Positions 9,001-64,000 of a DNA stretch of 64,000 bases are shown piece after piece. Origin of the DNA: Myxococcota bacterium (GTDB taxonomy: Bacteria > Myxococcota_A > Polyangia > Nannocystales > Nannocystaceae); NCBI GenBank assembly GCA_039028615.1, contig JBCCHT010000017.1, forward strand, positions 32,001 to 96,000, in the 5' to 3' direction. Made by a program: the position numbers. How positions within the stretch are numbered: the first letter of the stretch is position 1; every line of letters begins with the position of its first letter.

Positions 9001-12000
9001 GCTCGACGTCGCGAACCCCCTGCCAGATCGGCTGGTCGTCGGCGCCCGCCGAGGAGCCCATCGCCATCGACCACGTGCCGGACTCGCCCACGTCGGGGGC
9101 GGTGTTGAACGACCACGGGCCGTAGCGCGTACCGTCGATCTCGATGTCGTAGAAGTACTCCGTGTCGGGAGTCAGGCCGCCCACGTGCACGGTCTCGGTG
9201 AAGTCGTTCACGATGACCGGATAGCCGTAGTCCACGACCGGCGCGGACTGGAGCTCGACGAGGCTGGTGGCGACACGCAGCAGCACCGCCCGCGTGTGGT
9301 CGGTGCGGTACCAGATGCGCGCGTCGGTGGGCCCCATCGCGCCGAGCATGGGACCGTGCGTGATCGGGGTCGGCCAGATGGTGTCGCAGTGATTGCCGAA
9401 ACCGTCGGGATCGGCCCAGGCCGACAGCTCGCCCTCGCCGTTGCCGAAGTAGATGTCGAGCCCGTCCCGGCAATAGACCGGGTTGCCATCGAACGAGACC
9501 TGGAACCCCAGCGGCTTCCAAGCGTCGTTCCCCTCCGAGGTCAGGTAGAACTCCATGCTCTGGATGTCGGCGACGGCCGCCCCGTCCGCGTCGATGGTCA
9601 TGACGTCGTAGTTGGCGCGCCCCCGGTCCGCCCAGTCCTCGATGTCGAGCGCCTGGCACAGCCCGAGATCCGGGAAGCACACCTCGAACGAGTCGCCGCT
9701 CTCCGCGTCGGCCTCGACGTCGGTGTGCACGGTGATGTGAATCGTGTCGACCGTATCGCCGAAGGTGGGCGGGCCCGGATCCATGCACCCTTCGCCGTCG
9801 TTGGGCACGCCCTCGTCGATCTCTTCGTTGCAGTTCTGGTCGATGCCGTCGCAGACCTCGACCCCGTCGGCAAAGCCGGTCGGGTCGTCACCGTTGCAAT
9901 CCTCGGGCTCGCCGGTTCCCGTGGTCGTGTCCGATGACGCGTCGGTATCCCCGTCGCTCGTGGTCGTGTTCCCCCCCGCGCCCGTCGAGGACTCGTCGTC
10001 TGGAGAGGGAGTGCCCGTGGTGGTGGTCGCCTCGACCGTTCCGGTCGAGGTCGGATCCTCCGTGTCGAGCATCGTGTCGGGAGGGTCGAAACAACCGATC
10101 GCCGTCGAGCCGAACACCAAGGAAAAAATCGTAGAGCATGCGGCATCGCGGCGCTTACCGGGCATGCCATCATGCTGCCTCATTTGCGGTGACCGTCAAA
10201 GGGTTTGAGCCTCGTAGCACTCGACATGAGGGCGCCTACGCGGCAATCCACGTTCACCGTGCGAATCAACCAACGCGCGGCACCAATAAAGGACTGGCCA
10301 CAACAGTCGTGGCCACGGTGGCTAGCGGGGAACCGACTGCACCCCGGCTTCGAACGGCAACGAACGAACCGCTCGCGCGTTGCCACGCACGCGAACATCT
10401 CCACGCGATCACGGTCGTCCGACCGTTCGTTAGGCAAGCGCGGTCTGTGATCCGCGACATCGACACGCCGTCGATGACTCGTCCTCGATAACGTCGAGCG
10501 CAGCCGTGTGTCGGGCACCGAGCCCGAGCCGACTACTTGCTCTCGGGGTTGCTCAGCTCGGCCGCGACCCGCTCGTGGAAGCCGGCGGGGATCGACTCGT
10601 GCCGACGCGGATCGTCGATGGGTCGCACGAGGTCTTCGGCCGCGATGATCCACGGCGGCTCCGGTACGCGATCGAGTTCGTAGAAGCCGCCGCAGAAGCA
10701 CGCGTGCGGACACGAAGCGCACTGCTCCTTGCGGGTGCGCCGAGCCGCCAGGTACTCGCCCAGATTCACCGTCTCGTTGTTCACGAACACCATGTGCCGC
10801 GAGAGCTTGGCGAGGTCCCCCTGCAGCAGCTCGGTGTGGTCGGGCATGAAGCAGAAGGGCAGGTTGATGACCTGGAACTTCATGCGATCGCGGAACTCGT
10901 CGATCACCTCGGTGGCGATGCGAGCCGCGTCGGCGGTATCGGGTGCGACCCCACGCGTCGCACGTCCGAAGGGAGTGAGGAACTGGATGTTGAGCCACGG
11001 CAAGCCGAGCTTCAGGCTCAGCTGCGCCAGCTCCCGCAGCTTGCGGTAGTTCCCCTTGGTGAGCGTGACGTTCATGCCGAGCTCTACGCCGGGCGGCGCA
11101 TGCTTGACACAATTTTCGATGCCCCCGCAGGTCTGCTCGAAGGCCTCGGCCACGCCGACCTGCTGCGCGTGCGTGCGCTGGTCGGGGCCGTGCACGGAGA
11201 ACAGCAGCGTGGTCAGACCGCTGCGGACCAGCTCCTTGGCGTACCCGTCGTAGAAGCAGCGGCGGCCGTTGGTGGTGACGTTGATGCGCTCGTAACCCAG
11301 CGACCGGGCGGCGCGGATGAGCGGCACCAGCTCGGGGTTGAGCGTCGGCTCGCCGCCGTCGAAGTCGACCATGCGGACGCCCTTTTGGCGCCACTTGACC
11401 AGGTGCTCGCGCTGCCGCGTGGGGTGCCCCTGGATCTGCGTCCGAGTGCCCACCGCACAGAACGTGCAGTGGTTGTTGCAGACGTAGGTGACGTTCATGA
11501 TGAGCTTCTGCGGCGCGAGCGTGGCCTGCACGCGCTGCTGGAAGGTCCACATGAAGCGCTCGAGCAGCTCCGAGCTGAGCTCGCTGCCCGTCTGAGAGGG
11601 CGCCATCTGAAAGCGCGGCCCCCAGTCCTCGACGATCGGCAACGAGCGCCCCTCGGCCAGCGGCGTCCCCGGCAGCGGCGTGGCGAACTGGACGGCGGGA
11701 TAGGCCCCGTACTCGTCGAGGAGCTCGAGCGCGAACGCCAGCGTCTCGTTGACCTCGGCCGCCGTCTCCGAGGGCAAGCCGATCATGTAGTGGATCATCA
11801 GCGGCACGCCGACCTCGTGGGCGTTGCGAGCCGCGTTGCGGATGGTGTCGAGGTCGAGCCGCTTGCCCACCACCGAGTCGATCACCCGCAGCGAGCCGCT
11901 CTCGGCCGAGACGCTGACGGTGGTCACCCGGCCGCGCATGCGCGCGAGGTGGTCGCGCTCGAGGTAGTCGGCCCGCATTCCGTTGGGCACGTCGAAGGCC

Positions 12001-63000: not shown

Positions 63001-64000
63001 TCTCGCTGCACGCCCACACCGAGGAGGTCTCGCGCTACCAGACCCGCAAGGTCGGCGACTTCGCCAAGACCATCGCGGGCGTGAAGAACCTGCTCGGACA
63101 TGGGGTCGAGGTCGTCCTCAACCACGTCATCAACTCGCGAAACTACCGCTACCTGCGGCGCTACACCGAGTTCGTACACGAACAGTTCGAGGGCAAGGCG
63201 CCGATCTCCTTCGCCTTCATCACCCCGCAGTTCCAGGCCCTCGAGCGCATCGACCTCGTGCCGCGCATGTCGGAGGTGATGCCGTTTTTGCGTGACGCCA
63301 TGTATCGCGCCCAGCAGATCGGCCAGGGCTTTCACATCGGCTCTCGCCAGGGCATCCCGCCGTGTCAGCTGCGGGAGTTCGAGTTTTGGTCCGACGTGCT
63401 CGAGAGTTCCTCGAATGCCGCGGCCGAGGACTCGTACCAGAAGATCCGCAGCCCGGTCTGCGACGAGTGCAAGTACTCCCGCGTGTGTACGGGTCTGTGG
63501 CGCCCCTACGCGGACATGTACGGCCTCGACGAGCTGCGGGCGCTCCCGGGCGAGCTGCCCCCGGATGCACGGGCCGGAGCCGACGCGTGGGCCCCCGTGC
63601 CCTTCGACCAGGTCCCCGACGTGTTCCGCGATCGGGAGGCCGAGGCCGAGTACACCCAGGGTCGCTCGCAGCCGACGCCCGAGGTCGAGCCGGAGCTCCC
63701 GGAGGAGACCGGTCACTCCCGACAGCCCCGCGTGCTGCTCGTCGGCACGGGCAATCGGGCGCGAGTCTTGGCGCGAGAGCTCATTCGCACGCCCGAGCTG
63801 CTGATCGGCTGCGTCGCCTCTCCGCACGCGCCCGATGGCGATCTGGGCGCCTTCGGCAATGCCCCGGCCTACCGCGACATGGCCGAGGCGCAGGACGAGC
63901 AGGACCCCGACGGGATGGTGATCGCCAGCAACACGCGCCACCACCTGCCGGCCCTGCGCCGCGCTCGCGAGGCCGGGATCCCAGCGCTCGTCGAAAAACC

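Follow-up and report, generated by a model that had tools for sequence, protein, structure and literature searches.

The window analysed here is a 64,000-nucleotide stretch of contig C17 (window position 1 is contig position 32,001; coordinates prefixed C16 or C17 count along those contigs). It carries a gene for a peptide of the form leader-(His-Gly-Ser)n-Trp, within a block of radical SAM, oxygenase and membrane protein genes. The two precursors of the genome, the His-Xaa-Ser (HXS)-type genes and the core genes, which recur adjoining the precursor or dispersed in all well-assembled relatives examined, are as follows.

10533..12920 (-): radical SAM domain of B12-dependent type followed by a second, HxsC-like radical SAM domain; core gene
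12930..14783 (-): HxsC-like radical SAM protein; core gene
14873..16066 (-): HxsC-like radical SAM protein; core gene
18324..19169 (+): radical-SAM fold without cysteine motif; orthologue of the relatives' core gene, initially uncalled
19179..20660 (-): HxsB radical SAM/SPASM maturase; TIGR03978, 570.5 bits (cut-off 370)
20672..21157 (-): second HxsD-related protein; TIGR03976, 31.4 bits, under cut-off
21443..21988 (+): Tat-signal protein consisting of a single dX domain, with twin-arginine motif GRRTFL; core gene
22036..23952 (+): HxsC-like radical SAM and class I methyltransferase fusion; core gene with orthologues in relatives
23962..25221 (-): enzyme of the aKG-HExxH peptide hydroxylase type; core gene; TIGR04267, 95.4 bits (cut-off 40)
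25360..25833 (+): HxsD-related protein with acidic tail; TIGR03976, 34 bits, under the cut-off of 50
25830..26048 (+): HxsD-like small protein; NF038315, 65 bits (cut-off 41)
26139..26558 (+): HxsA4-family precursor, 139 aa (57-aa leader, HAS, (HGS)26, terminal W); NF038313, 129.4 bits (cut-off 55)
48157..50001 (+): two-domain HxsC-like radical SAM protein; core gene with a resident paralogue on C16
C16:92594-92893: second precursor (leader, HCS, 10 HGS, W); NF038313, 68.5 bits (cut-off 55)

The genome-wide survey's note had described the two precursors as uncalled genes of a family already in a database, lacking a peptidoglycan-binding domain. We found that both are real open reading frames with 26 and 10 HGS repeats, although the count of 26 depends on the assembly and the single run that holds the stretch, possibly its source, breaks within the repeat. 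Both exceed the NCBIfam HxsA4 cut-off, so the peptide family is already catalogued; its chemistry is absent from the papers searchable here. In all six reading frames of the 12.3-Mb genome, just these two runs have more than three H-x-S/T triplets, and no further precursor-like open reading frame was seen between called genes. Within the C17 repeat, Ser codons alternate between TCG and AGC and Gly codons between GGT and GGC while the protein repeat stays constant, as expected for a coding repeat. The C17 precursor gave no peptidoglycan-binding or HxsA (TIGR03979) match and has no hydrophobic stretch at its N terminus. All 39 distinct HGS cores in the first set of fetched loci end in HGSHGSW, and the cores of three additional loci end in HGSHGQW, all with the terminal Trp that the survey had noted; the repeat number ranges from 9 to 27 across relatives. 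Alignment of 35 precursors also bore out a similar leader (LPxF...QRxIS.RA) ahead of the core. The gene thus has the layout of a RiPP: a ribosomal precursor, a conserved leader and a separate core.

The precursor, the HxsD-like proteins encoded beside precursors (NF038315, 65 and 71.9 bits) and HxsB all match the NCBIfam type 4 His-Xaa-Ser set above cut-off, which supports the earlier report of HxsB- and HxsD-like genes in the cluster. The catalogued set also contains HxsC4 (NF038332), whereas this genome, which is 96.7% complete, has no match above the cut-off of 500 (best, 124.8 bits). Of the several HxsC4-like enzymes claimed for the block, which contains 10 of the 12 top HxsC4-model matches genome-wide, none is a true HxsC4. 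Of 15 relatives scanned, 12 have a true HxsC4, and all have 7-13 matches to the model. The catalogued set comprises four or five genes, whereas here about 15 core and about 20 accessory genes accompany the precursor, none of them named for this system in NCBIfam. Among the HxsD-related genes, the orthologue of 25360..25833 adjoins the precursor in most relatives examined. The names HxsA4 and HxsC4 had zero mentions in the searched literature on Hxs genes, and a search of myxobacterial, Nannocystaceae and His-Xaa-Ser literature outside subscription journals returned no account of this poly-HGS system.

Li et al. (2026; PMC13128918) describe E. coli HxsD-B-C-A as an anti-phage system that keeps phage DNA from entering and whose effector is cleaved, gains 8 Da (+C/-4H) on a repeat and moves to the periplasm; His-x-Ser repeats, HxsB, HxsD-like partners and HxsC-like enzymes are likewise present here. 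The D-B-C-A order was not found in our gene map, the best HxsC (TIGR03977) and HxsD (TIGR03976) matches are below cut-off (117 versus 267.9 and 34 versus 50 bits), and the precursor has neither the signal nor the peptidoglycan-binding domain of HxsA. The locus is thus distinct from the four-gene system, as the survey had argued.

We counted 18 radical-SAM-fold genes in C17:42533-110891, of which 15 have an intact CxxxCxxC motif; the 16 reported previously fall inside this range. Seventeen are called genes matching Pfam Radical_SAM, one of them under the curated cut-off, and the eighteenth is 18324..19169. A motif scan of the gene calls placed 14 of 47 motif-bearing radical-SAM-like genes in the block's 68 kb, with a fifteenth elsewhere on the contig. 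This concentration, like that of the HxsC4-model matches, is not due to chance. The calls come from a home-made codon model, in which starts are sometimes wrong and short genes may be missed. A tree of the radical SAM domains supported only the subgroup 93767/92279/98470/80157 (support 97); a single origin of these domains is not supported by it. Viperin and PADLOC defence models gave no full-length strong match, only partial matches to the radical SAM core of at most 71 bits.

The accessory genes and flanks are listed below.

2697..4889 (+): TPR protein; paralogue at C17:106862; homologues adjoin core genes in three relatives (G059, G037, G022)
4897..6117 (+): sulfotransferase at the right edge of a sugar-modifying block
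26630..27475 (-): accessory-module protein with no family match; found together with the PT-barrel genes across genomes
27523..28407 (+): PT-barrel protein with the ABBA prenyltransferase fold; model pLDDT 93.8
28435..29643 (+): motif-less radical-SAM fold with C-terminal dX
29683..30582 (+): PT-barrel paralogue (33% identity, E 4e-34)
34775..36172 (+): HxsC-like radical SAM with C-terminal dX; adjoins the PT-barrel gene in many families
38338..40716 (+): dX, PhyH oxygenase and amidohydrolase fusion
40721..42364 (+): B12-binding radical SAM with C-terminal dX
42432..43580 (+): dX and PA0069/SPL-like radical SAM
43596..45308 (-): polytopic membrane protein, weakly GT-C-like; 9 hydrophobic segments; a homologue matches PMT_2 at E 0.002, below cut-off
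45451..46218 (+): PhyH oxygenase
46231..48093 (+): polytopic membrane protein, missing from the G046 block
50075..51085 (+): radical SAM, paralogous to the next gene
51082..52098 (+): radical SAM, paralogous to the preceding gene
52108..52887 (-): Rce1-like (CPBP) membrane protease, missing from the G046 block
53928..54821 (-): JmjC/cupin-8 oxygenase
55275..56165 (+): LPG-synthase-TM (flippase-like) membrane protein, match below cut-off
56162..57064 (-): UbiA-family prenyltransferase
57088..59484 (-): polytopic membrane protein outside known families, with a G046 orthologue
59503..60264 (-): PhyH oxygenase
60279..61529 (-): HxsC-like radical SAM, the sole one lacking an orthologue in G046
61767..64000 (+): two radical SAM domains and GFO/IDH/MocA oxidoreductase; continues past the window end
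C17:96769-110891 (beyond the window): DUF483-like protein, three radical SAM proteins, GT-C-like protein with dX, TPR protein

These include the membrane proteins, three PhyH enzymes and one JmjC enzyme that had been attributed to the cluster together with the HExxH enzyme. The sugar-modifying block (UDP-GlcNAc 2-epimerase, NeuB, carbamoyltransferase, deacetylase) begins left of the window and is also found in the relative G046.

The protein at 27523..28407 has no Pfam, NCBIfam or PDB sequence match, and a close homologue is annotated as hypothetical at NCBI. Its model is a ten-strand PT-barrel (Foldseek E 1.9e-6), as in the fungal and bacterial DMATS enzymes, AmbP1/3 and the cyanobactin enzymes LimF, PagF and KgpF. 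All of the 19 best VIA-align rows were ABBA enzymes (top Z 13.1, rmsd 4.2, 248 aligned), which are distant from the protein here, with about 10% identity and an rmsd of 4-5 A. K81, K224, R225, K287 and seven Tyr are kept in at least 70% of 35 homologues and are candidates for the basic and Tyr residues that bind the prenyl diphosphate. On these predicted structures the pair is a prenyltransferase-fold family unrecognised by sequence libraries, and its prenyl transfer activity is putative. Profile comparison gave no link between the neighbouring 26630..27475 protein and the PT-barrel family (probability 1.5).

Four membrane proteins have no Pfam match over cut-off, and profile comparison found no links among them. 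The GT-C-like members have 7-9 hydrophobic segments. One of them, C17:104688, resembles the GT-C/ArnT/PMT_2 glycosyltransferases in ESM language-model features (clustering with PMT_2 at 0.97) and differs from them in lacking a Pfam match over cut-off and in its N-terminal dX. The GT-C-like assignment, which draws on these features and one sub-threshold Pfam match, is weak.

Eight cluster proteins share an unnamed domain of about 100 residues, dX, that was detected from one seed and has a confidently predicted structure. Between the profiles of the eight families, 12 independent pairs of 28 aligned at E <= 6e-4, whereas none of 60 pairs that included a control piece scored better than 0.0048. 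The final profile found four further matches at E < 0.01 among 9,229 called proteins, three of them near system genes. No Pfam family was found among 82 members, and no PDB sequence match at E < 0.1. A fold search gave no clear match, with no RRE or PqqD among the matches listed; the best (Z 6.7, rmsd 3.7, 76 aligned) was to unrelated proteins. The strand-helix order of the model differs from that of an RRE winged helix. Some top hits of a representative search with 1,455 matches were false, for example a cadherin repeat protein.

One dX protein carries the Tat signal, with R11 and R12 nearly invariant in 79 homologues; the ESM Atlas yielded no usable match for it. Its carriers also hold the precursor in 88 of 94 genomes, and the two genes lie within 5 kb of each other in 36 of the 79 genomes in which both positions were listed. 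No match at E 1e-12 was found in 53 of 141 precursor-bearing genomes (8 candidates scored per genome), so this putative escort is not supported as universal. A complex prediction of its domain with the leader and first repeats scored 0.00, which is uninformative either way. Occurring on enzymes, an exported protein and membrane proteins, dX ties cytoplasmic enzymes to envelope parts; we consider it a new small domain and a candidate substrate-docking and export module.

To the left, the block shared with G046 begins at C17:27250, about 15 kb before C17:42533, where the survey had set its start. Gene order is kept in G046, as reported: orthologues stand in the same order for 34 of 47 called genes, including 16 of 17 called radical SAM genes. 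The other 13, among them OmpA-domain, peptidoglycan-binding and secreted-protein genes, lack a counterpart in the G046 block, so roughly one gene in four of the span is a passenger or strain-specific. Some neighbouring genes are fused in G046. The block is a second gene set next to scattered resident copies, and in the HxsB tree the block copies and the resident copies of the genus form separate clades (100/100 each). Its G+C content (0.682 versus 0.683 for the genome) gives no support to recent transfer from a distant donor.

The precursor had been described as spread across the family. Of 73 family genomes, 52 have HxsA4 above its cut-off and 67 have a match of any strength; across the phylum it is above cut-off in 125 of 401 genomes, so the spread extends beyond the family to the phylum. 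The core genes are family-wide and mostly scattered. The two-domain B12-type gene (10533..12920) is found in 59 of 73 family genomes, as a single copy in 58 of them, and is missing in small-genome genera that likewise lack a strong precursor match. Such near-universal single-copy presence is unlike that of most defence systems. In a sample of 400 phylum genomes, the precursor occurs in 141 overall, in 26 of 27 PT-barrel carriers and in 49 of 51 carriers of the DUF483-like domain, counts in which kin genomes are not independent. In a genome of another family (G222), 36 kb unite the precursor, HxsB, HxsC4, the Tat-dX protein and the PT-barrel protein with homologues of C17:66775, 74432, 93767, 96769, 98470 and 100275, in altered gene order, and G237 and G468 have partial versions of this assembly. 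C17:96769, which lies 39 kb from the precursor here, has its counterpart no more than about 2 kb from a precursor match in G423, G448, G222 and G009. Genes far apart in this cluster are therefore linked to the precursor in other families, which agrees with the proposal that more than four enzymes belong with it. The family-wide core, the G222 reassembly and the near-confinement of accessory markers to precursor genomes argue for one system rather than a chance pile. No RNA datasets holding the core region were listed.

Taken together, our best reading is a heavily modified, exported and envelope-decorated peptide that resembles the HXS effector and stands outside canonical HXS; binding, chemistry and function we infer from the genes. 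We put the chance at roughly one in two that the block unites a second set of the myxobacterial type 4 His-Xaa-Ser genes with optional tailoring modules and matures one poly-(HGS) peptide into an envelope-held product. HxsB and the HxsD-like proteins would bind the leader. HxsB, the HxsC-like, B12-type and methyltransferase-fused enzymes would then cross-link and methylate the H-G-S triplets, as suggested by the +C/-4H change on E. coli HxsA, and the motif-less radical SAM copies would be scaffolds. The HExxH, PhyH and JmjC oxygenases would hydroxylate, and the PT-barrel proteins would prenylate His or the invariant terminal Trp, with dX docking the enzymes onto the substrate or one another. 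The signal-less peptide would leave the cytoplasm bound to the Tat-dX protein; a literature search on Tat hitchhiking of RiPPs found nothing related. GT-C-like membrane proteins, supplied by the UbiA, flippase-like and NeuB-type genes, would add sugars outside, giving a His-rich polymer that carries lipids and sugars and stays in the envelope. Both the conserved Tat-signal protein and the GT-C-like membrane proteins suggest a site in the cell envelope, closer again to the HXS mode. A constant role in the envelope would fall to the conserved core, and variation of the surface to the patchy modules; an HXS-like periplasmic barrier or a metal-binding layer is the most likely job. One point against this reading is that a uniform repeat of just three residues leaves few different targets for as many as 15 radical SAM genes with an intact motif. 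Others are the accessory modules that stand apart from a precursor, the lack of a true HxsC4 in the genome and of a conserved leader peptidase, and a family-wide presence unlike that of most defence systems.

A possible, if unlikely, alternative is that two pathways are coupled: HxsB and HxsD, with HxsC4 where present, alone act on the peptide, and the PT-barrels, oxygenases, sugar genes and most of the HxsC-like enzymes make a product of their own (small molecule, lipid or glycan), which is joined on last or needed alongside. For the HxsC-like domains, the next-best matches are to enzymes that act on small molecules (heme b synthase, MoaA, NirJ and viperin), and the top ABBA matches include small-molecule prenyltransferases, but the peptide prenyltransferases LimF, KgpF, PagF and PirF are also among the fold matches. 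The block is flanked by NeuB, epimerase, carbamoyltransferase and sulfotransferase genes. In the stretches read, the accessory module stands apart from any precursor in Enhygromyxa L132 and L133 and in G369, G291, G029 and G058, yet its markers are nearly confined to precursor genomes and repeatedly interleave with the precursor and HxsB. The link that dX forms between cytoplasmic enzymes and exported and membrane proteins also argues against two pathways.

We regard as unlikely an extended form of the preferred reading, a phylum-wide assembly line in which dX lines up more than 12 radical SAM enzymes, the oxygenases and the PT-barrel family on poly-HGS, the peptide leaves as a Tat passenger, and GT-C enzymes complete a cross-linked glyco-lipo-peptide envelope layer whose interchangeable decorations guard against phage.

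Quite improbable is a classical diffusible RiPP, whose core would be released whole or in short pieces and act outside the cell as an antibiotic, signal or metal chelator. The leader-core layout and 27 His residues, which suit metal binding, are compatible with such a product. The block also contains an amidohydrolase fusion, an Rce1-like protease and an HExxH enzyme, a type that, according to PMC12636437, can cut peptide backbones. No ABC exporter or conserved peptidase was found among the called genes, however: the Rce1-like gene is missing in the G046 block, and the amidohydrolase fusion belongs to the accessory module only. Variable repeat number is a further objection, single-copy core genes scattered across a family are atypical of a natural-product cluster, and the Tat and GT-C-like parts indicate the envelope. 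Hardly credible is an accretion site, at which a small HxsA4 operon gathered unrelated radical SAM and oxygenase genes: it fits the passenger genes only, and is otherwise largely refuted by the G222 reassembly, nested presence, the common dX domain and the gene fusions.

Triceptides are RiPPs with three-residue cyclophanes and HExxH hydroxylases, in which one or two enzymes act on few motifs. Like the present locus, they combine triplets of the aromatic-x-Ser type with a SPASM maturase and an HExxH enzyme of the aKG type. What is new here is the dX domain, the ABBA-fold pair and the GT-C-like membrane proteins; a mostly undescribed enzyme kit is gathered around a catalogued, unstudied HGS-repeat peptide. 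For His-Xaa-Ser chemistry, known in E. coli just as a mass shift, the locus gives a parts list for what looks like the largest branch, carried by about a third of the sampled phylum genomes. It offers many radical SAM enzymes that may act on a single simple and uniform peptide, whose chemistry and role thereby become testable. The genes of this branch are usually scattered and so are overlooked by cluster-finding tools. For example, the same central arrangement is seen on a contig of the cultured Paraliomyxa miuraensis (L135), which the genome paper (PMC9960870) lists in neither its antiSMASH nor its RiPPMiner tables.

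Translation placed an uncalled precursor gene of the NCBIfam type-4 His-Xaa-Ser family HxsA4 in the window:

26139–26558, plus strand: HxsA4 precursor, 139 residues, a 57-residue leader followed by HAS, 26 HGS triplets and W

This confirmed the uncalled leader–(HGS)n–Trp genes reported in the genome-wide survey's note, one on contig C17, where we counted 26 HGS triplets (about 25 in the note), and one on C16, whose core is HCS, 10 HGS and W. A six-frame scan of the whole genome found no other long H-x-S/T runs. Synonymous codons vary within the HGS repeat of the precursor, and such variation at an unchanged repeat fits a coding sequence. 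An HxsD-like gene precedes each precursor. Both precursors exceeded the HxsA4 cut-off, so the family is indeed already in a database, as the note had cautioned. Matches above this HxsA4 cut-off came from 52 of 73 family genomes, in line with a precursor said to occur in most Nannocystaceae, and from 125 of 401 phylum genomes. Among the family's precursors the leader falls into two subtypes, and the first triplet is HCS, HAS or HGS; several genomes had two or three precursors differing in repeat number. Precursors of other families (records L178, L180 and L182) end in HGSHGQW, not HGSHGSW.

We called genes with a codon model trained on this genome and followed this with family scans. The surrounding block (C17:42533–110891) holds 17 called genes with Pfam radical SAM matches and one motif-less radical SAM orthologue missed by gene calling, against 16 in the note; 15 have an intact CxxxCxxC motif. 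HxsB of the block was above its cut-off, and none of the other radical SAM genes reached that of HxsC or HxsC4. The description of several enzymes as HxsC4-like held in part: 10 of the genome's 12 best HxsC4-model matches lie in the block, but a scan of the whole genome (96.7% complete) found no true HxsC4. HxsC4 was present in all four genus relatives scanned, unlike here; it was either lost from this genome, replaced by a block enzyme or left unassembled. The HExxH enzyme, three PhyH oxygenases and JmjC oxygenase were present as claimed, together with UbiA, Rce1-like and flippase-like genes and four large membrane proteins. The two HxsD-related proteins (window 20672–21157 and 25360–25833) share an acidic motif at their C-terminal ends, DPLGIA-x-SWE, which may serve as a docking tail. 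Two Cys-rich acidic repeat proteins of myxobacterial type (window 6234–8135 and 16142–17815) contain 93-bp tandem repeats; one has a MYXO-CTERM tail, and the second gene has two homologues at the same site in the related genome G046.

Gene order was largely kept in G046, with collinear orthologues for 34 of 47 called genes and 16 of the 17 called radical SAM genes. The start at C17:42533 needed revision: collinearity runs from C17:27250 to 110891, which makes a sugar-gene block part of the left end. Through their G046 orthologues, the genes there were assigned to UDP-GlcNAc 2-epimerase, NeuB, carbamoyltransferase, deacetylase, TPR and sulfotransferase families. Thirteen genes had no orthologue in the G046 block, including the Rce1-like gene, several secreted or OmpA/peptidoglycan-binding proteins and HExxH, whose G046 orthologue sits elsewhere in that genome. 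At window 31395–34606 the block is interrupted by three genes absent from the G046 block, one with an OmpA domain, one small and one with a peptidoglycan-binding domain (PG_binding_1); a short ORF-rich gap lies ahead of them. An insert in G046 (L036:13273–18348), absent here, carries two WelO5-like oxygenase/halogenase genes and a double B12 radical SAM gene with the domain dX described below. G046 also fuses genes that are separate here: C17:66775 with 70338 (at C69:346641), and 93767 with the C-terminal part of 96769 (at C69:375150). In Paraliomyxa miuraensis (L135), the central 20 kb, from HxsB to an SPL-like enzyme, has the same arrangement.

We surveyed eight relatives over about 60–100 kb each, and 30 further stretches. 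A recurrent core comprised HxsB, two HxsD-like genes, HxsC4, a radical SAM–methyltransferase, a two-domain B12-type enzyme (59 of 73 family genomes), four or five other HxsC-like genes, HExxH and a Tat-signal protein, often accompanied by a TPR protein. Core genes of relatives are dispersed over several loci, and each of 15 relatives scanned had 7–13 HxsC4-model matches. Besides the block, the genome studied here has resident copies on C5 (HxsB, an HxsD-like gene and one HxsC-like gene), with further genes on C16. In an HxsB tree, block copies and the genus' resident copies form separate clades; the block is thus a second gene set beside the resident one.

The protein at window 27523–28407 (PT-barrel; model pLDDT 93.8) matches ABBA prenyltransferases in predicted fold (Foldseek E 1.9e-6). 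In VIA-align, ABBA enzymes filled the top 19 rows (Z 13.1 to 8.0), and the next protein, an unrelated one, scored 6.6. Lys, Arg and Tyr residues are conserved in this predicted prenyltransferase, which has a paralogue:

29683–30582: PT-barrel paralogue

Language-model features likened C17:104688 to PMT_2/ArnT glycosyltransferases (0.97), and its homologue adjoins a precursor in G021 and G023.

Three lines of evidence, nested presence, reassembly and a shared domain, indicate that the accessory genes belong to the precursor system. Of 73 family genomes, 11 have the PT-barrel gene and 6 the DUF483-like domain; among 401 phylum genomes the figures are 28 and 52. The precursor was present in 26 of 27 PT-barrel, 49 of 51 DUF483-like and 88 of 94 Tat-dX carriers (141 of 400 genomes overall), counts that leave out the source genome and include related, non-independent ones. 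In family f2 it was found in 4 of 4 carriers versus 8 of 29 genomes, and likewise in f3 and f8. G222, from another family, has the precursor, HxsB, HxsC4, Tat-dX, HExxH, PT-barrel and six accessory homologues within 36 kb in a different order; G237 and G468 show partial reassembly. The DUF483-like gene, 39 kb from the precursor here, lies about 2 kb or less from a precursor match in G423, G448, G222 and G009. Against linkage, the accessory module stands apart from the precursor in the stretches read of L132, L133, G369, G291, G029 and G058, and no Tat-dX match was found in 53 precursor-bearing genomes (E 1e-12; eight candidates scored per genome). The strongest alternative, which we consider unlikely, is that most of the enzymes build a small molecule, lipid or glycan distinct from the peptide.

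The shared domain, dX, is about 100 residues long. Iteration from one seed across 1,201 neighbourhood proteins picked it up in the system's radical SAM, PhyH and membrane proteins and also in stand-alone form; iterations begun from each of five other single seeds stayed within their own family or one sister family. As a control for drift, we compared family profiles built from full-length orthologues. Among eight families, 13 of 28 pairs matched at E <= 6e-4, one discounted for common members and several with short alignments; the best of 60 control-piece pairs reached 0.0048. A deeper Tat-family profile aligned with two enzyme families (4e-6 and 2e-5). Across the whole proteome, matches of the final profile below E 0.01 comprised eight proteins of the block and four from elsewhere: two on C16, a radical SAM protein on C9 and one immediately left of the block, with a G046 orthologue that falls within the G046 block. 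AlphaFold predicted a four-strand sheet packed against a long helix (pLDDT 96), with no clear match in structure searches and no Pfam family. Representatives matching at E <= 0.001 numbered 1,455, some of them false. A twin-arginine signal pattern marked 87 of 128 short, stand-alone matches, and RR was nearly invariant among 79 aligned Tat-dX homologues. In other genomes, P0013, P0041 and P0042 consist almost entirely of dX-like repeats, four to six in tandem, and no enzyme domain was detected in them. Cytoplasmic enzymes, an exported protein and a GT-C-like membrane protein thus all carry dX, the distribution one would expect of a handle for a moving substrate; we infer that dX binds the peptide.

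In the E. coli His-Xaa-Ser (HXS) system, according to PMC13128918, HxsB, HxsC and HxsD cleave HxsA, one repeat gains +C/−4H and the effector works in the periplasm. By analogy, we give roughly even odds (about 50%) to the same logic at larger scale, yielding a modified, exported, glycosylated and envelope-held peptide. Its triplets or invariant Trp would be cross-linked, methylated, hydroxylated and prenylated in the cytoplasm. The signal-less peptide would be exported together with the Tat-dX protein and glycosylated at the membrane, and its retention in the envelope would substitute for the missing peptidoglycan-binding domain. A free RiPP seems improbable. Accretion of the genes is very hard to credit beside their reassembly in G222.

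The block falls outside canonical HXS, in agreement with the view that it is not the four-gene defence system; its catalogued type-4 members are the precursor, the HxsD-like gene and HxsB. We found no description of a type-4 system in the literature searched. In the parts available, PMC9062424 names HxsB/HxsC merely in passing, PMC13445942 mentions neither Hxs nor radical SAM, and PMC9960870 lists 17 clusters, with the L135 contig absent from its supplement tables. We conclude that the block is a real, new and large form of a known but chemically unexplored His-Xaa-Ser system type.

Two other gene groups were noticed. A conserved radical SAM pair (about 360 and 745 aa) occurs without a nearby HGS precursor at C3:225869–229173 and in G046 (C35), G059 (C5) and G063 (C1). 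Left of the window, C17:16375–22755 is a separate candidate RiPP cluster with a radical SAM gene and a 54-residue precursor-like ORF; its further genes are presumably of YcaO/TfuA types.
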